From the IMG/VR virus record IMGVR_UViG_2974616520_000001, positions 49,328 to 113,327 of that record: a stretch of 64,000 nucleotides of DNA. One strand, 5' to 3'. The notes beneath the pieces are model-generated. The model ran no database searches and was not told the origin of the DNA. It saw nothing but the letters and a program-made list of their open reading frames with translations. How positions within the stretch are numbered: position 1 is the first letter of the stretch; every line of letters begins with the position of its first letter. Shown here piece after piece: positions 2,181 to 58,948 of this stretch. A program made the position numbers and the translations under genes. Source of the stretch: a virus. Its lineage: Duplodnaviria; Heunggongvirae; Uroviricota; Caudoviricetes; Ackermannviridae.

Positions 2181-2299
2181 AGGTGAACATAAAATAACGC
2201 TTTCTCAATGATCAACCTGTCAGTATAATGCATTTCAGCAGCTGCGCTGACGATGAGTATTTATGAACGAAGTGAATAAATGCGAGTCGTAATGGTTTT

Positions 2300-2377
2300 A
2301 TCCGAGCGTAGCGAGTGATAAGACTTTAATAAGAACGGCGGCTGCGCCGCCTATAATATTAATATAAACCGCGCGAG
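2300..2377 (+). repeat. copy A of ~80-bp three-block intergenic element (ATCCGAGCGTAGCGAGTGATAA ... TAATAAGAAC ... ACCGCGCGAG)
   Basis: blocks at 2300-2321, 2327-2336, 2368-2377; same three blocks in same order occur reverse-complemented at 48861-48948. Confidence 0.8.
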
Positions 2378-2396
2378 AGCAAATTCCCGTTCCCCA

Positions 2397-2404
2397 CATA
2401 AATA
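2397..2404 (+). promoter_or_regulatory. late-promoter-like CATAAATA (7/8 match to TATAAATA)
   Basis: 32 nt upstream of ATG 2436 of the gp5-like gene, 20 nt after repeat block 3. Confidence 0.4.
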
Positions 2405-20448: not shown

Positions 20449-20502
20449 TTTAAAGTCCTGTCGTTTCAATCAGGCTGGCACATTGCCGCCCTACTGAGTT
20501 CA

Positions 20503-20533
20503 ATAATACGGCAGTTATTGAACTTAGTAAAGC
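20503..20533 (-). promoter_or_regulatory. T4-early-like promoter (GCTTTACT -35, 17-nt spacer, TATTAT -10) with A/T UP element
   Basis: minus strand TTTTAAATTATTTATTGAAACCGCTTTACTAAGTTCAATAACTGCCGTATTATTGAAC; near-identical to element at 58870-58925. Confidence 0.55.
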
Positions 20534-20549
20534 GGTTTCAATAAATAAT

Positions 20550-21164
20550 TTAAAAGTTTTTTGAGGGCAGGAATGAGCGGAAGTCAGCTACCATGTCAGC
20601 CAGCTTCGGTGACCAGCCGTCAATCAGGGGCTTGATAGCATCGGCTGCAGCCAGGCTGAGCACAACATCATTACCTGCCACTCCATGGTTAGGGAACTGG
20701 GCTACCCAGCTCTTGTAATCGATACCATCAAACGGGATCGGCTTGTGCAGGTATGAGTCACACGTTGCCCCAAAGCCGTCCACGCCCCAGAGGATCACCC
20801 CAGTGGCCGCAACGTTAGACTCTGTCGCAAGGTAGAAGTTGTTCTGGTAAAGCCCCTCAATGACGTAGAGGCCGTTCTGAGGCATCAGTCTGATCTGACC
20901 ATTGGCCGCCATATCCTCAAAGCAGTTGGTCGCATTGTCAACAGATTCCATCGGATCGATCACTGTGGCAAAGTCAGGGTAGCCCACTACAGACATTGCG
21001 AAGAAGGCCTCAATATAAGTCAGCAGCTCACTCTTGGTCAGTGCTGTCTCATGGCGGCGAATAGTCCCTGAGTAATAGGCTTTGATTGTACCGGTTTTAA
21101 CACCCTGGAGGGAAGCCAGGATGAAGAGGTTCTTTAACCCCTTGGGAGTGGCAACGACACGCAT
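20550..21164 (-). CDS. hypothetical protein (204 aa)
   Basis: ORF; ATGA-coupled to upstream gene. Confidence 0.45.
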   Translation of the reverse strand: MRVVATPKGLKNLFILASLQGVKTGTIKAYYSGTIRRHETALTKSELLTYIEAFFAMSVVGYPDFATVIDPMESVDNATNCFEDMAANGQIRLMPQNGLYVIEGLYQNNFYLATESNVAATGVILWGVDGFGATCDSYLHKPIPFDGIDYKSWVAQFPNHGVAGNDVVLSLAAADAIKPLIDGWSPKLADMVADFRSFLPSKNF

Positions 21165-48068: not shown

Positions 48069-48734
48069 TCACTCTAACTGCAGGCCAACAAAATACTTCA
48101 GGCTGGCATCAGACGATTCAAAGCTGGCTACCTGCATTTCTTCACACGCCTTGATGATATAGCCGCTGCTCATCATCTTCAGGTTAGACACGTCCAGTGG
48201 GAATGAGCAGTCGCCCAGAGTGGTTTCGCCCAGCTCAACGACATAATCGTTTGAGTTTTCCAGCTCGGCAGTAGTGCCGGTCAGGTAGGTTTTGCCGTTT
48301 TTGTTGACCAGCTTAGCGGTTTTGTGAGACAGCACGTTACACACACGGATGAATTCATCCAGGGTATCGGCAGTCACTTCGGCCTGGAAGTTCACATCAT
48401 CAAGGATCAGATCTTCCGGTGGCGGCGCAGTCAGCTCTTTGGCAGAAGCCCAGAATGCCAGTTCAACTTTATCGCCGTTGAGGGTGATCTTTTTGTCGGT
48501 AAATTCCAGCTTACACTCTTTGAAGCTTTTCAGCTTCAGGATTGCCAGCAGTTTGGTGATGTCCAGCACAGGGAATTCGGACGGGAAGTCTTCTTCGATA
48601 TCTGCCATCGCAATTACGGTAGCAGAGTCGCTCACAACGCGCAGCTTTTTACCCGGTTGTAATACGATTGAAGGACAGACGCCTGAGAAGTTCTGAAGGA
48701 TACTGAGGGTGCGCGGTGTTAACGTAATAGACAT
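48069..48734 (-). CDS. sliding clamp (gp45-like)
   Basis: 221 aa, size and position of T4 gp45 upstream of gp44; acidic. Confidence 0.7.
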   Translation of the reverse strand: MSITLTPRTLSILQNFSGVCPSIVLQPGKKLRVVSDSATVIAMADIEEDFPSEFPVLDITKLLAILKLKSFKECKLEFTDKKITLNGDKVELAFWASAKELTAPPPEDLILDDVNFQAEVTADTLDEFIRVCNVLSHKTAKLVNKNGKTYLTGTTAELENSNDYVVELGETTLGDCSFPLDVSNLKMMSSGYIIKACEEMQVASFESSDASLKYFVGLQLE

Positions 48735-48825
48735 AATGTCGTTCCTATAGAGGGTTCAAGTCAAAGCAGTCGTTGGTGACTGACAGGAGCTAATATTACC
48801 CGTTCTTGTGTATTGAAGCAAAACT

Positions 48826-48832
48826 TATTTAG
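48826..48832 (-). promoter_or_regulatory. late-promoter variant CTAAATA upstream of gp45
   Basis: minus-strand CCTCCTAAATAAG ~90 nt upstream of gp45 ATG; same CTAAATA core as upstream of gp22 and gp23. Confidence 0.4.
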
Positions 48833-48860
48833 GAGGATTCTAAATCGGGAAGGGGGTGTT

Positions 48861-48948
48861 CTCGCGCGGTCTATTATTAAACTAGAATAATATTAAATTA
48901 AGCTTAAATTAAGTTCTTATTAATATTTATCACTCGCTACGCTCGGAT
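48861..48948 (-). repeat. copy B (inverted) of three-block intergenic element
   Basis: reverse complement carries ATCCGAGCGTAGCGAGTGATAA (48927-48948), TAATAAGAAC (48913-48922), ACCGCGCGAG (48861-48870) in same order as copy A. Confidence 0.8.
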
Positions 48949-49106
48949 GATTAATATTCTCGTTATGTCGCTGACGCTCCACAACTCGAATATAGCGTGC
49001 CGCCCGATCATTGACCTAATGATTTTTAATCCGGGTTTAAAATAGTGTTCATAAACATCATCCAGGGTATATTTTCTTTAATTTAACCCCTAATAGGATA
49101 CATGTT

Positions 49107-49556
49107 ATGAAGTATGAACACCGTGAACACTTTTCATTAATAGCAGTGACTGACACCAAATTTGAGAAGCCGCGCTTCCTTATTAACTTAAACCCTTCTG
49201 TGTTCACACCGAACGAATTGATGAGCAATGGGATCATCGTTCGCAATGAACTAAAGAAACTGGTTGCCGCAGCTGCTTCCAATGGCTTGTCAGTACCGGC
49301 TGGTCTGAACATCGCTGTCCTCAATCTACGTGATGGGAAAGTTCGTTACTACCCGTTCAACATGAACATGGACGTGAAGATCTTCCGTGAGTATCATCAG
49401 GAGATCCAGAGTAAGATGGAAGCATTCTTCGGTATGGACACAGCACCTGAACCGATGTATGTCGATATTGGGCAGCTGACTCCAGAACAGGCACAGACCT
49501 ATGCCGAAGCCAGCATAGGTTACATGGAAGCCAGCCGCGCCTATGTCAAGCAGTAA
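49107..49556 (+). CDS. hypothetical protein (149 aa), divergent from gp45
   Basis: ATG 49107; occupies rpbA-like position next to gp45 but on opposite strand; no motif recognised. Confidence 0.45.
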   Translation: MKYEHREHFSLIAVTDTKFEKPRFLINLNPSVFTPNELMSNGIIVRNELKKLVAAAASNGLSVPAGLNIAVLNLRDGKVRYYPFNMNMDVKIFREYHQEIQSKMEAFFGMDTAPEPMYVDIGQLTPEQAQTYAEASIGYMEASRAYVKQ

Positions 49557-56913: not shown

Positions 56914-57347
56914 GGTGCCTCCGAGGAGTATTTGTCTTCTTCAGAGCCAGTATCGTCGCCAATCGGGTTTTCAAAGCCGTACTTCACTGCAGTGGCCTTG
57001 AAGAGGGGCAGGCCGTACTGGGCGTAATTGTCTTCTGGGAAATCTTCCAGACCTTCTTCCAGCACCCAGTTCCACATCTGGACAACAGCAAACATCGTGC
57101 CAGCGCTGAGGCCGCGACGGTTCAGTGCCTTTTCAAAGCCGAAGTCAACATCCTTCTGCAGCTGGGCCAGAACGTTCTCACGAGTGAACTCAACCGGCTT
57201 ATGTTCAGCGCGGGCTTCTGGAGTGTTGAATTCCATGCCAAGGGATTCGATCTGCTCAACAGTCAAAAACTGTGCCAGACGGTTCAGATCACGCCCATCC
57301 AGAGTCTGGGATTTGTGTTGAGACAGAATTTGTTCGATAGTTTTCAT
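56907..57347 (-). CDS. hypothetical acidic protein (~146 aa)
   Basis: ATG 57347 (track start 57368 is TTG). Confidence 0.4.
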   Translation of the reverse strand: MKTIEQILSQHKSQTLDGRDLNRLAQFLTVEQIESLGMEFNTPEARAEHKPVEFTRENVLAQLQKDVDFGFEKALNRRGLSAGTMFAVVQMWNWVLEEGLEDFPEDNYAQYGLPLFKATAVKYGFENPIGDDTGSEEDKYSSEAPW

Positions 57348-57357
57348 GATATAGCCC

Positions 57358-57612
57358 TTACAGTTCAAGGTTAGAGGATACGGGTTCTTCGTATTCCCAC
57401 TTGTAGGTGGTCACAGTATCGTGTTCACTCGGGGCCGTCAGTGTGCGGCCCACCTGGGATTCGGGGACAAAGGTGCTCTCAAAGCGAGACAGGTACAAAC
57501 GGCTCTCGCCTGCTACCATTTTGCGTCGAAACTGGAAGAACTCCGTGACAGTCTTCTCATCGTCAAACCGACGAATCTGTGTAGTGCGCTTGAGCCATTC
57601 TACCATTTTCAC
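57358..57612 (-). CDS. hypothetical protein (84 aa)
   Basis: ORF. Confidence 0.35.
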   Translation of the reverse strand: MKMVEWLKRTTQIRRFDDEKTVTEFFQFRRKMVAGESRLYLSRFESTFVPESQVGRTLTAPSEHDTVTTYKWEYEEPVSSNLEL

Positions 57613-57647: not shown

Positions 57648-58115
57648 TTAAAGGTTGAAGTTGCCGAAGTTGTTGATCTTATCAGCAATGTGCATTGCAG
57701 CAACATGTTCAGAGAAGATCTGACGCTTGCCCCAGGCACCCGGTACATAAGAGATGACAATGTAACTATCAATAATGGAGGCGTCAAGGAAGTTGCGGTC
57801 TTCTTCGATAAACGCAACACCCACACCGAACTCATCCATCAGAGCGATCAGCTTACCGGCGAACTGTTCCTGGGTGTAAAGGATCTTGCCGAGCATTTCA
57901 ACAGCCAGGTTACGGACCATTTTGCGCTGGGCTTGGAAGAAGACCATTTCAACACAACCCACTTTGCTGAGGATGTGTAATACGCGGCCAGCAAATTCAG
58001 GGCCGTTCACCCATGCCTGCTCAGCAATAGCTTCTTTAGAAACCATGTGCAGGTCTTCCTGACACTGACGGATAAACTCAAACGGGTTGATCGACAGATC
58101 TTTGATAGGGGTCAT
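57648..58115 (-). CDS. hypothetical protein (~155 aa)
   Basis: ATG 58115. Confidence 0.4.
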   Translation of the reverse strand: MTPIKDLSINPFEFIRQCQEDLHMVSKEAIAEQAWVNGPEFAGRVLHILSKVGCVEMVFFQAQRKMVRNLAVEMLGKILYTQEQFAGKLIALMDEFGVGVAFIEEDRNFLDASIIDSYIVISYVPGAWGKRQIFSEHVAAMHIADKINNFGNFNL

Positions 58116-58187
58116 GATATAGGTCTCGCTTTTCAAGGAATGACTAAGTTTACTACTGCGCTCATTTATTGAACGCAGTGTGTAAAA

Positions 58188-58580: not shown

Positions 58581-58820
58581 TTAAAGGGTGACGTAAGCCT
58601 GAGCTTCAGTGGCCTTGGCAACCAGGGCGGCTTCAGCAGCCTTCAGAGCTGGTTTGAATTCAGACATGCCGCTGTGGACAACCAGGAAGTGCTGGGTATC
58701 AACTTCTTTTACCAGTTTGCGCAGTTCGGTAGCAGCGCGGCGCTTGGCAGTAGCCTGACCTTTCTTGGCCGGAAGATCAGAGAATGCGGTGGCGAATTCG
58801 TAAGCTTGGATGCGGTTCAT
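58581..58820 (-). CDS. hypothetical protein (79 aa), first gene after early promoter
   Basis: ATG 58820 with AGGA RBS. Confidence 0.45.
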   Translation of the reverse strand: MNRIQAYEFATAFSDLPAKKGQATAKRRAATELRKLVKEVDTQHFLVVHSGMSEFKPALKAAEAALVAKATEAQAYVTL

Positions 58821-58878
58821 GGTGTAGATCCTTCAGTTCAAGTTGTTCGGTTGCGGCTGTGTACCGCCGATGAATTGA

Positions 58879-58909
58879 ACTATACGGCAGTTATTGAACT
58901 TAGTAAAGC
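58879..58909 (-). promoter_or_regulatory. T4-early-like promoter (GCTTTACT -35, 17-nt spacer, TATAGT -10) with A/T UP element
   Basis: near-identical 60-bp to element at 20495-20556. Confidence 0.55.
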
Positions 58910-58948
58910 TTGTTCAATAAAATAATTAAAAATATTTTGAACAAAAGA

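Follow-up and report, generated by a model that had tools for sequence, protein, structure and literature searches.

The question addressed was which function is served by the sequence blocks that lie upstream of the gp5 gene of Erwinia phage vB_EamM-Bue1 (NC_048702) and recur, inverted, upstream of gp45. The window analyzed comprised 64,000 nucleotides, corresponding to positions 49328-113327 of the phage record. In the initial annotation the blocks were described as an ~80-bp, three-block unit controlling the two genes, or alternatively as a pair of recombinogenic inverted repeats. Bue1 belongs to the Ackermannviridae (ViI-like), which find wide use in typing, biocontrol and therapy directed at Salmonella, E. 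coli O157, Klebsiella, Dickeya and Erwinia.

Copies and distribution of the element

The 22-nt block ATCCGAGCGTAGCGAGTGATAA (block 1) was located exactly at 2300-2321 (+) and 48927-48948 (-), and the CGCGCGAG block (block 3) was likewise exact at the positions first given for it. The ATCCGAGCGTAGCGAGTGATAA pair was also recovered in a repeat search of the window (inverted pair I5), and 100 shuffles yielded 0 matches even with up to 3 mismatches allowed. Across the whole genome one further copy was found, outside the window. This third exact copy of blocks 1 and 3 is at 145134-145221 (-) of the Bue1 record, upstream of gp6.

The ~80-bp unit proved too small, with a conserved hairpin (H1) lying further upstream in both window copies (Table 1). 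The element is ~130-250 nt long, non-coding, multi-hairpin and strand-specific, and is ordered as promoter-like site, H1, block 1 hairpin (B1), AT-rich segment and CGCGCGAG box. All copies point toward a gene start ~60-130 nt away. The long non-coding region originally assigned upstream of gp5 was reduced to 2161-2435, because an annotated 42-aa ORF and a terminator occupy the rest. The gap before gp45 spans 48735-49106 and is bounded by an ORF without RefSeq annotation.

Table 1. Positions of element features and flanking promoters in the window
Feature	Position	Strand	Sequence or organization
Promoter-like site, copy 1	2202-2229	+	TTCTCA-16 nt-TATAAT after A-tract; from promoter scan
Hairpin H1, copy 1	2255-2286	+	GAGTATTTA-T-GA-AC-GAA-GT-GA-A-TAAATGCGAG; Watson-Crick helices, tandem G·A mismatches, GAA loop
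Block 1 (hairpin B1), copy 1	2298-2321	+	TTATC-C-GA-GC-GTA-GC-GA-G-(T)-GATAA; core GCGTAGC, a GCGNAGC DNA mini-hairpin; 3 exact copies per genome
AT-rich spacer, copy 1	2322-2367	+	Contains block 2, hairpin GGCGGC-TGC-GCCGCC (2337-2351) and TATAATATTAAT
Block 2	2327-2336 (+), 48913-48922 (-)		TAATAAGAAC; within spacers
Block 3, copy 1	2368-2379	+	ACCGCGCGAGAG (ACCGCGCGAG(A) at 2368-2378); conserved core CGCGCGAG
gp5 late promoter	2397-2404	+	CATAAATA, 31 nt before ATG at 2436; kept in phiMAM1 and CBA120
Promoter-like site, copy 2	48989-49017	-	AGGTCA-17-TATATT; TATATT overlaps H1 5' arm
Hairpin H1, copy 2	48951-48995	-	ATATTC-GA-GTTGTG-GA-GC-GTCA-GC-GA-CATAAC-GA-GAATAT
Block 1 (hairpin B1), copy 2	48927-48948	-	Exact match to copy 1
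AT-rich spacer, copy 2	48871-48926	-	Nested inverted repeats AATATTAA..TTAATATT and TTAAGCTTAA; contains block 2
Block 3, copy 2	48860-48870	-	ACCGCGCGAGA, ACCGCGCGAG(A)
CTAAATA	48826-48832	-	Late-promoter-like; 92 nt from gp45 ATG
gp45 sigma70-like promoter	48793-48821	-	TTGCTT-17-TAATAT, between element and gp45 start at 48734

Related phages from several genera carry the element as well, each time ahead of the same genes. In Serratia phage phiMAM1 and E. coli phage CBA120 it precedes gp5, gp45 and gp6, as in Bue1; the three dispersed copies are 42-48 kb apart and occupy identical loci in 3/3 complete genomes from three genera, with gene order and copy orientation the same throughout. The gp6-upstream element was also found in 8 further phages (Agtrevirus, Limestonevirus, Taipeivirus, Kuttervirus). 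Gp6-type sequence gave blastn matches in 277 phage records, and the sequence under the match was unannotated in almost all of the records listed. Late operons other than those at the three loci are without the element. Bue1 and phiMAM1 share block 1 with 100% identity, although their neighboring proteins are only 57-74% identical; overall, the element is conserved as well as or better than its neighboring proteins. It is a three-copy cis element (gp5, gp45, gp6) in the enterobacterial Ackermannviridae examined, which bears out the shared, orientation-specific element first proposed and is neither chance nor a coding remnant.

Hairpin structure and covariation

The three blocks do not amount to equivalent binding sites: all are present in the window, but block 1 forms a hairpin of its own, in which tandem G·A mismatches are invariant and Watson-Crick pairs covary. 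It takes the form N-GA-GC-loop-GC-GA-N', usually capped by a GCGNAGC DNA mini-hairpin, and CGAGC-N3/4-GCGAG was found in elements only. Helices punctuated by invariant tandem G·A pairs, combined with DNA mini-hairpins, make this an unusual motif. A review defines mini-hairpins as GNA or GNNA loops that contain a sheared G·A pair and are closed by two G-C pairs, and describes GCGNAGC mini-hairpins as much more stable as DNA than as RNA.

Block 1 structures were tabulated for 22 phage hairpins and p15A. The closing pairs vary (C:G, T:A, G:C, T·G), GA/GA is invariant, and loop insertions are themselves self-complementary. All Bue1 copies have GCGTAGC as the core and other copies have GCGAAGC, while GCGTCAGC caps both the gp45-copy H1 and the CBA120 gp6 insertion. 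The mini-hairpin loop is not universal, TTCA, AAA and TTT loops also being present.

H1 is longer than B1, with 1-3 tandem G·A interruptions and clear compensatory changes. Whole-upstream-region MAFFT alignments were unreliable at the indel-rich hairpins and were replaced by anchored segments and a purpose-written stem finder. Over 8 copies of H1, 97.4% of cells pair and double changes occur in 5/10 pairs; the covariation score was reached by 0/500 shuffles and the summed H1 scores were 384 (171 ± 10 in shuffles). The copy 1 stem scored 27 (10.5 ± 2.0 in shuffles), gave the same fold by RNA MFE and covaries with the gp6 copy, the closing pair being T:A in one and C:G in the other. The copy 2 stem scored 38 (15.8 ± 2.9 in shuffles) and was found with RNA and DNA parameters alike. 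The hairpins are established by covariation.

Folding was observed on the gene-sense strand only, with RNA-parameter z-scores of -3.4, -1.9 and -1.0 and antisense values of ~0. ViennaRNA DNA parameters, a model outside which sheared G·A pairs fall, gave weak z-scores only. The MFE of the copy 1 spacer had a z-score of -2.7 (RNA) or -3.4 (DNA).

Sequence variation between copies

Block 2 was not retained as a part of the element: it is exact only in the two window copies, has 1 mismatch in the Bue1 gp6 copy and is absent in the other genera examined. The block 3 core is kept in most copies and missing in L034 and CBA120 gp5. The spacer sequence differs in each copy and genus. Block 1 and block 3 are separated by 46, 56 and 55 nt in Bue1 and by 19-64 nt across genera, and the gp6 copies of AG3, CBA120, RC-2014 and May have spacers of 19-24 nt without a hairpin. 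The copy 2 spacer overlaps the most AT-rich 50-nt window of the 164-kb Bue1 genome (AT 0.88, rank 1), and the spacer of the phiMAM1 gp45 copy overlaps a joint-top AT-rich 50-nt window.

GCGAG occurs 3-4 times per element in one orientation. Block 1 is flanked by TTATCC..GTGAT in Bue1, phiMAM1 and AG3, by TTACGAGC..GAGTA in 2/3 CBA120 copies, RC-2014 and May, and by TCACGAGC at CBA120 gp45. The GGCGGC hairpin is common to the Bue1 gp5 and gp6 copies, and two extra hairpins are common to CBA120 gp5 and gp6. A terminator-like hairpin was seen on the opposite strand only, in two Bue1 copies. Reading the GGCGGC hairpin as an opposite-strand terminator was rejected: no gene is transcribed toward the gp6-locus hairpin, and the hairpin is absent in other genera.

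Promoters flanking the element

[ACT]TAAATA was identified as the Bue1 late-promoter motif, with 28/59 sites 20-45 nt upstream of ORF starts (3.2 expected), including those of capsid, portal, sheath, gp5 and gp6. The gp5 site corresponds to a T4-type late promoter (TATAAATA-like -10 element), and gp55, gp33 and gp45 are annotated. The late-promoter motif reported to follow both window copies therefore holds for gp5, and is also conserved at gp6, but the gp45 site lies further from its ATG than the usual 20-45 nt (Table 1). The corresponding positions in phiMAM1, CBA120, L017, L031 and L034 lack CTAAATA, and the gp45 site is probably non-functional or Bue1-specific. In the AG3 paper a late promoter was predicted before gp5 and gp6. 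For gp45 a sigma70-like promoter was found instead, its TTTGCTTCAATAC being kept in L017, L031, L032, L034 and L036 and its phiMAM1 counterpart reading TTGCTT-18-TGGTATAAT. This site was unlisted in the promoter scan (-35 match 3/6). MotA-type middle promoters are a T4 feature not established for Ackermannviridae.

Upstream of the hairpins, a promoter-like arrangement (A-tract, hexamer, 16-17 non-conserved nt, TAnnnT) precedes every copy examined, 13/15 being found by regex and 2 by eye. The -10-like hexamer lies within a hairpin in several copies. The upstream site of copy 2 is doubtful as promoter of an H1-containing RNA, since the H1 stem includes its -10. A sigma70 reading of TTGACC-block 1-TGATAA in phiMAM1-type copies was discarded, because 18-22 nt is not a suitable spacing and Bue1 lacks TTGACC.

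A proposed single-strand initiation signal

Of the functions considered, we tentatively rank a single-stranded DNA signal for initiation at an R-loop-type origin slightly above a structured 5' leader RNA. By analogy with T4 oriF/oriG and ColE1-type ssiA, the element could be a helicase-primase loading signal at an R-loop or D-loop origin, a reading held at well below even confidence. The element would be active once the gene-sense (non-template) strand was single-stranded. Transcription from the upstream promoter would enter the AT-rich segment, and the displaced strand would fold into very stable G·A and mini-hairpin structures. These might hold the bubble open and present the phage loader (gp59/gp41/gp61) or host PriA with a branched site, and forks would then depart in the direction of the downstream operons. 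What was observed is the structure, its strand specificity, its conservation and its copy number; single-strandedness in vivo, protein binding and origin activity are inferred.

Several observations point to such a signal. Three dispersed copies are held at fixed loci in three genera, block 1 exceeds the neighboring proteins in identity, the hairpins covary and fold on the sense strand only, the spacer is AT-rich (to an extreme at the gp45 copy), and each copy is preceded by a promoter-like arrangement. In all three genomes the gp6 copy coincides with the main switch in gene orientation and is close to the minimum of cumulative GC skew, but the skew is asymmetric and equally explained by transcription direction.

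Among the closest known likenesses is ssiA of ColE1/p15A (n'-pas, the PriA primosome assembly site), where the presumed ssiA hairpin C-GA-GC-GNA-GC-GA-G is identical to that of phage block 1. Phage CCGAGCGTAGCGAGT matches the p15A origin region at 15/15 positions, with no longer similarity. We take this 15-mer, as in pBR322, to lie inside ssiA, and the pMB1 version presumably differs only at the loop N. In p15A, GAGCGAGGAAGCGG comes after CCGAGCGTAGCGAGT and is similar to block 3, whose form in AG3, RC-2014 and others is GCGAGGAAG; both systems have a further GAGCGAGGAAG-like block, oriented alike, after the hairpin, and the arrangement is strand-specific. In ColE1-type replicons n'-pas/ssiA lies immediately past the origin, on the strand that leading-strand synthesis displaces after transcription-primed initiation. 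The plasmid blocks are, however, 4 nt apart, whereas the phage blocks are separated by 19-64 AT-rich nt, and the phage, unlike ColE1-type plasmids, has its own loader, helicase and primase. The p15A similarity is short, and a 12-mer literature match is within chance expectation for the search space. There is no extended homology to ColE1/p15A replicons, because blastn of the element against plasmids returned nothing beyond noise at E ~8.

Several origins per genome, as proposed here, are also found in the T4-related replication system (oriF in uvsY, oriG in gene 34). At T4 R-loop origins a promoter precedes a readily unwound, AT-rich stretch of a gene leader, and the displaced strand serves for gp59-mediated helicase loading. 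They have neither conserved G·A hairpins nor sequence similarity to the phage element. Primase origins (G4, St-1 and alpha3 oric; RSF1010 ssiA) and the virion-RNAP promoters of N4, which has three hairpin promoters, likewise carry GCGNAGC or GCGNNAGC caps at the apex of a conserved hairpin. The hairpins of those systems act in single-stranded or extruded DNA (review). They belong, however, to ssDNA phages, a broad-host plasmid and an N4-type RNAP, and Ackermannviridae encode neither RepB' nor a virion RNAP. In the phage element, unlike these origins, the invariant part is the tandem G·A stem and not the loop.

Other points weigh against an initiation signal. The loops are not all GNA or GNNA, the 19-24-nt hairpin-less spacers of four gp6 copies are short for an unwinding element, and the DNA-parameter z-scores are weak. 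Genes for T4-type recombination-dependent replication are present, and PriA is not needed. Co-orientation and closeness to gene starts fit a leader RNA at least as well. Were the element an origin or primosome site, it would give the first map of replication starts in Ackermannviridae and link a ColE1-type ssDNA signal to a T4-type replisome.

A possible structured leader RNA

The small structured leader RNA suggested at the outset stays among the two best readings and is possible, with a slightly lower standing than the initiation signal. The element would then belong to early or middle mRNAs of gp5, gp6 and gp45 begun at the upstream promoter-like site. Its G·A hairpins might bind a phage or host factor or RNA polymerase, with an effect on operon read-through (nut/put/ops-like), translation or processing and stability. 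Late transcripts would start at the downstream late promoter without the leader, as those of T4 genes e, soc and 49 lack the early leader. The element would in that case represent a cis-regulatory RNA of a new class, whose protein partner could be tested for. Under either this or the origin reading, the three intergenic regions would be unsuitable as neutral insertion sites in phage engineering.

The element is always co-oriented with, and near, the downstream gene, and an A-tract/-35/-10 arrangement with a non-conserved 16-17-nt spacer precedes every copy. Covariation includes G·U-type wobbles on the sense strand only, and RNA-parameter MFE yields H1, B1 and the spacer hairpin (z down to -3.4, antisense ~0). 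In RNA, tandem sheared G·A pairs are commonly recognized by proteins. The sense strand has no terminator, and the RNA would therefore continue into the gene. Against this, the mini-hairpin core is much weaker as RNA, Rfam gave no match even at E<=5, and no transcript data were found in the literature searched. The putative gp45-type -10 (TATATT) forms the 5' arm of the covarying H1 stem, so that an RNA with this start would be unable to fold into H1.

Lambda nut boxB, HK022 put RNA and RfaH ops/JUMPStart are likewise short, conserved, orientation-dependent leader hairpins of long operons with few copies per genome. A GTAGCG core is common to ops and block 1, and the published RfaH-ops structure reportedly shows a small non-template-strand hairpin, like block 1. 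The phage element, however, has no boxA and no GNRA pentaloop, and neither canonical GGCGGTAGnnTG nor the RfaH ops sequence GGCGGTAG was seen in the copies when these were read by eye. Block 1 reads GAGCGTAGCGAGTG, and the adjacent GGCGGTGTTACG in Kuttervirus-type copies lacks TAG. As late genes, gp5 and gp6 each possess a late promoter located downstream of the element, and late transcripts would therefore bypass the element, unlike those of antitermination leaders.

Operator, enhancer and recombination readings

A double-stranded operator or enhancer, the main idea of the initial annotation, is unlikely. A phage or host protein would bind direct GCGAG(A/T) repeats in H1, block 1 and block 3 and activate or repress the gp5, gp6 and gp45 promoters. 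Compatible with this are the 3-4 GCGAG occurrences per element in one orientation, the Bue1 block 1-block 3 spacings, which approximate whole helical turns, and several annotated 'transcriptional regulators' in the genome. The block 1 flanks change in concert across a genome's copies, which would fit co-evolution with a trans-acting factor. However, H1 and block 1 form hairpins with compensatory changes and fold on one strand; compensatory pairs, self-complementary loop insertions and strand-asymmetric folding are not predicted for a duplex site. Spacing varies across genera, and other late operons lack the element.

It is about as unlikely, or slightly more so, that a hairpin-stabilized R-loop origin doubles as a built-in late-transcription enhancer. 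If an RNA or primer with non-template polarity were annealed immediately before the late promoter, it would create a primer-template junction, whose polarity would be exactly right for gp44/62 to load the gp45 clamp facing the promoter. The start of replication would then switch on gp5 and gp6 (the first baseplate genes) and feed back on gp45. The T4 'mobile enhancer' is supplied non-specifically by forks and nicks; the arrangement supposed here would be its hard-wired, sequence-specific form.

A recombination substrate or mobile cassette is very unlikely, whether as repeats driving inversions or module shuffling (PeSL-like) or as a MITE/REP-like selfish repeat. Copies do evolve in concert within a genome (the GGCGGC hairpin of Bue1, the extra hairpins of CBA120), and the block 1 20-mer occurs in REP-like arrays and inverted pairs on unrelated bacterial contigs. 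Contigs in relatives' assemblies end at the element, and for this reason it matters for genome assembly. But the recombinogenic inverted repeats first suggested find no support in Bue1, phiMAM1 and CBA120: in all three genera the copies number only three, occupy identical core-gene loci and keep their relative orientation, and no inversion between copies was seen. Neither terminal inverted repeats nor target duplications were seen, and purifying selection on structure exceeds the needs of a recombination scar. PeSL cassettes (RB49/phi1-type) are likewise repeated intergenic promoter-like and stem-loop modules in a T4-related genome. PeSLs are reportedly many, lie in hyperplastic regions, carry strong sigma70 promoters and efficient terminators and accompany gene shuffling; in the phages compared here three copies at core genes, with stable synteny, were found without a pairing of strong promoter and sense-strand terminator.

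Chance similarity or a duplicated coding remnant was refuted: the 22-mer was matched in 0/100 shuffles, the 33-aa ORF that spans copy 1 exactly (2298-2399, minus strand) is intact only there and broken by stop codons in the other two copies, and what is conserved is nucleotide sequence and structure, with indels occurring between the blocks.

Database and literature searches

Rfam 15 gave no match at gathering score across the window, nothing relevant at E<=5 in copy 1 or four gp6-type loci, and only a neighboring tRNA on unrelated contigs carrying the 20-mer. Pfam and PHROG assigned no function to the genes divergent from the copies (149-aa ORF, gp157, gp158, gp062). The element is undescribed in the literature searched; part of it may be mentioned by Adriaenssens et al. 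2012, a study said to treat 'conserved regulatory sequences' of Viunalikevirus. Promoters, regulation and replication origins are not mentioned in a 2024 review of the Ackermannviridae family.

TA(A/G)TATTA(A/T) was considered as a CRESS-virus nonanucleotide or phiX174 origin and set aside as chance in AT-rich DNA, with no HUH endonuclease identified. A CRISPR-repeat mimic (RNA anti-CRISPR) was also rejected, what we take to be a resemblance to I-F and I-E repeats being vague.

The exact two-block pattern was not found in IMG/VR. In GTDB genomes it gave 12 matches, all in GC-rich actinobacteria, myxobacteria and the like, which were judged to be chance. A metagenome scan with the 20-mer yielded 18 loci, of which 11 are coding matches, attributed to chance, at the N-terminus of an enoyl-CoA-hydratase-like gene of actinobacteria. 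The remaining loci lie in unrelated non-coding contexts, including the REP-like arrays and inverted pairs mentioned above.

Copies of the element in Bue1

By megablast the window was placed in Erwinia phage vB_EamM-Bue1 (NC_048702, 164,037 bp; Ackermannviridae, Nezavisimistyvirus; record position = window position + 49,327); Erwinia phage phiEa2809 was 99% identical. All sequences quoted in the initial annotation were found where it had placed them. The 22-mer ATCCGAGCGTAGCGAGTGATAA (block 1) precedes gp5 and, inverted, gp45, and the pair was also recovered by a repeat search of the window as inverted pair I5. With up to 3 mismatches allowed, the 22-mer gave zero matches among 100 shuffles. 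A third exact copy, together with ACCGCGCGAGA, was located in the whole Bue1 genome directly 5' of the gp6 baseplate wedge gene, and no others were found there even at 5 mismatches. Copies are spaced 42-48 kb apart. Block 2 (TAATAAGAAC) is exact only in the window's two copies, and CGAGC-N3/4-GCGAG was absent outside the elements in the genomes of Bue1, Serratia phage phiMAM1 and E. coli phage CBA120. The shared, oriented module first proposed was borne out; the details of its blocks, its two copies and a late promoter at gp45 were not.

Coordinates of the element, its surroundings and other repeats
Feature	Sequence	Position	Strand
Block 1 22-mer, gp5 copy	window	2300-2321	+
Block 1 22-mer, gp45 copy	window	48927-48948	-
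Third copy, gp6	Bue1 record	145134-145221	-
Hairpin H1	window	2255-2286; 48951-48995	
Late-promoter motif, gp5	window	2397-2404	
Late-promoter motif, further examples	Bue1 record	111961; 115727; 116342; 118340	
Sigma70-like promoter, gp45	window	48793-48821	
149-aa ORF	window	49107-49556	+
33-aa ORF (rejected)	window	2298-2399	-
Cumulative GC-skew minimum	Bue1 record	145218	
Cumulative GC-skew minimum	phiMAM1	22496	
Cumulative GC-skew minimum	CBA120	133225	
Vibrio phage K356 hairpins	L067	77-97; 234-254	
Unrelated 20-mer locus	L053	5852-6053	
Unrelated 20-mer locus	L039	373-440	
Unrelated 20-mer locus	L047	2666-2760	
Unrelated 20-mer locus	L022	10659-10800	
70-nt direct repeat	window	20495-20564; 58871-58940	
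Repeat family D1 (examples)	window	57333-57370; 58101-58138; 58806-58843	+
Paired stem-loops	window	59889-59922/61207-61240	
Paired stem-loops	window	31529-31558/35586-35615	
Paired stem-loops	window	29714-29744/53766-53796	

Structure and strand specificity

Block 1 folds as a hairpin, N-GA-GC-loop-GC-GA-N', compared here in 22 phage hairpins with the p15A sequence added. The GA/GA dinucleotides were invariant throughout, and both the closing pair (C:G, T:A, G:C or T·G) and the inner pair (C:G or T:A) varied. Loops read GTA, GAA or TTCA, or consist of a long self-complementary insertion (GAGGG..CCCTC in the CBA120 gp6 copy), and an outer helix, such as TTATC/GATAA in Bue1, adjoins directly or past a one-base bulge. 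The core, GCGTAGC or GCGAAGC, is a 'mini-hairpin DNA'.

A second hairpin, H1, lies ∼12-45 nt upstream of block 1 and consists of 10-14 Watson-Crick or G·T pairs broken by 1-3 tandem G·A blocks. Its score was far above shuffles in 12/12 copies tested (sum 384 vs 171 ± 9.6). In an alignment of 8 sequences, 97.4% of cells paired (83% in shuffles), both-sided changes were present at 5 of 10 pairs and the covariation score of 0.38 (vs 0.13) was reached by 0/500 shuffles; sliding the partners out of register reduced pairing to 28-61%. In Kuttervirus-type copies two more hairpins that covary lie between H1 and block 1: one reads CAGCC-TCCAT-GGCTG at gp6 and ATGCC-TCCAT-GGCAT at gp5, and the other, CTGCC..GGCGG, has a T·G pair that is conserved.

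The spacer 3' of block 1 is AT-rich, 19-64 nt long and different in sequence in each copy; in the gp45 copy it overlaps the 50-nt stretch that ranks first for AT content in the Bue1 genome, and in phiMAM1 one that shares the top rank. Spacers of at least 38 nt tend to hold an inverted repeat (summed z about -6), and none was found in four gp6 copies with short spacers. Most copies then have block 3 (CGCGCGAG), which is missing in L034, a relative's contig, and in CBA120 gp5.

Folding with RNA parameters was limited to the gene-sense strand, with z of -3.4, -1.9 and -1.0 for the three Bue1 copies and -0.0, +0.7 and +0.3 for their complements, and H1, the spacer hairpin and block 1 all reappeared in the minimum-energy structure. 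DNA parameters give no bonus for sheared G·A pairs, and with them the z values were weaker.

Conservation among relatives

A 30-nt query around block 1 was found at three places each in Serratia phages phiMAM1, 3M, 2050H1, KNP4 and Kevin. Just as in Bue1, the genes that follow the copies in the complete phiMAM1 genome are gp6, gp45 and gp5, despite limited protein identity (gp6 ∼64%, gp45 relatives 54-74%). The same three genes are preceded by copies in CBA120. The element also precedes gp45 in metagenomic relatives and is recognizable 5' of gp6 in Agtrevirus AG3, SKML-39 and EspM4VN, Kuttervirus CBA120 and fGh-Ecl02, Limestonevirus RC-2014 and Taipeivirus May and IME250. The CBA120 gp6-type sequence matched 277 phage records at 476 places by blastn, and the matched stretch was without an annotated feature in almost all of the matches listed. 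The element was not present before gp6 in Aeromonas phage phiA8-29. In the distant relative Vibrio phage K356, similar hairpins (GGGG-TGAGCGAAGCGAA-CCCC and GGGTTAC-GAA-GTAACCC, each followed by ATA(A/G)TCCC) sit about 450-620 nt 5' of gp6 and may be a diverged form.

Several relatives' contigs terminate exactly within the element, as a repeat would lead one to expect. Independent metagenome or SRA assemblies (L017, L032, L033 and L036) break inside it, 150-250 nt upstream of gp45, a practical sign of a repeat longer than the assembler k-mer in those genomes.

Flanking promoters and genes

[ACT]TAAATA is the Bue1 late-promoter motif: genome-wide, 28 of its 59 occurrences lie 20-45 nt upstream of ORF starts against 3.2 expected, including those of the capsid, portal, sheath, gp5 and gp6 genes. 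The form CTAAATA outnumbers the T4 consensus TATAAATA (25 vs 6 occurrences). Late promoters before gp5 and gp6 had been predicted in the AG3 genome paper. A late-promoter motif had been noted downstream of both copies in the window. The gp5 site is kept in phiMAM1 and CBA120; at gp45, CTAAATA stands 92 nt from the ATG and is lacking in relatives, which instead keep a sigma70-like promoter, TTGCTT-17-TAATAT.

Every copy is preceded by an A-tract, a hexamer, a non-conserved 16-17-nt spacer and a TAnnnT hexamer, an arrangement that looks like a promoter; in gp45-type copies, however, TATATT doubles as the 5' arm of H1. The pre-gp45 region is bounded by a conserved 149-aa ORF, divergent from gp45 and located between it and the uvsW helicase gene, that is missing from the Bue1 RefSeq annotation; the related contigs L031, L034 and L035 have an annotated gene of 133-144 aa in its place. 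It had no Pfam or PHROG match, and the same searches gave no recognizable function for other genes divergent from the copies. A 33-aa hydrophobic ORF spanning the gp5 copy exactly was rejected as spurious because stops break its frame in the gp45 and gp6 copies.

Function

The structure, strand specificity and conservation of the element are demonstrated. Its function is inferred, and the reading ranked first, held tentatively, is a single-stranded-DNA initiation signal of R-loop/D-loop-type origins, paralleling T4 oriF/oriG plus ColE1 ssiA. Such an origin would combine a promoter, an AT-rich unwinding segment and, on the displaced strand, very stable G·A/mini-hairpin structures serving helicase-primase loading. 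According to a 2026 review, mini-hairpins typify single-strand initiation sites (G4, St-1, alpha3, RSF1010 ssiA) and N4 hairpin promoters; in DNA form their melting temperature is 70-76°C, and the RNA form is much weaker. The gp6 copy lies at the main switch of gene orientation, 0.75-4.5 kb from the cumulative GC-skew minimum, in all three complete genomes, a proximity confounded with transcription.

A literature search with the block 1 12-mer led to the p15A origin region, which reads CCGAGCGTAGCGAGT (15/15) and then GAGCGAGGAAGCGG; block 3 reads GCGAGGAAG in several phage copies. By blastn against plasmids the likeness did not extend past this short shared sequence. We take it, from pBR322, to lie inside n'-pas/ssiA. 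In ColE1-type replicons this PriA primosome assembly site is just downstream of the origin, beside a DnaA box, and is exposed on the displaced strand.

Nearly as likely as the origin signal is a structured 5' leader RNA, which best accounts for the orientation of each copy towards a gene start close by; folding with RNA parameters also favours it. The element matched no known family in an Rfam search. A duplex operator or enhancer is unlikely, as it leaves the covariation unexplained, and recombination or mobile-cassette readings, which conflict with the stable three-locus synteny, are highly improbable. Chance or a coding remnant was excluded.

The element is not mentioned in the Ackermannviridae review or in the accessible genome papers. 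Mini-hairpins, tandem G·A pairs, ssi signals, R-loop origins and leader RNAs are already known building blocks; no description appears to exist of the element itself, of its distribution over three loci in a whole phage family or of its hairpin architecture punctuated by G·A pairs.

Other repeats

The block 1 20-mer ATCCGAGCGWAGCGAGTGAT was also found in unrelated bacterial and viral metagenome contigs, within REP-like arrays starting GTAG or as inverted pairs; the G·A mini-hairpin module is therefore widely used outside these phages. A 70-nt direct repeat (83% identical) in the window holds the inverted repeat GTTCAATAA..TTATTGAAC and may be an early-promoter cassette; its TTATTGAA motif also occurs in divergent promoter regions beside gp6 in other genera. 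Read on the minus strand, repeat family D1 (∼38 nt) looks like a translation-initiation region (..AAGGGCTATATCATGAAAAC..) that is conserved along a series of small genes on that strand. Paired near-identical GC-rich stem-loops, terminator-like in being followed by T-runs, suggest duplicated terminator modules.
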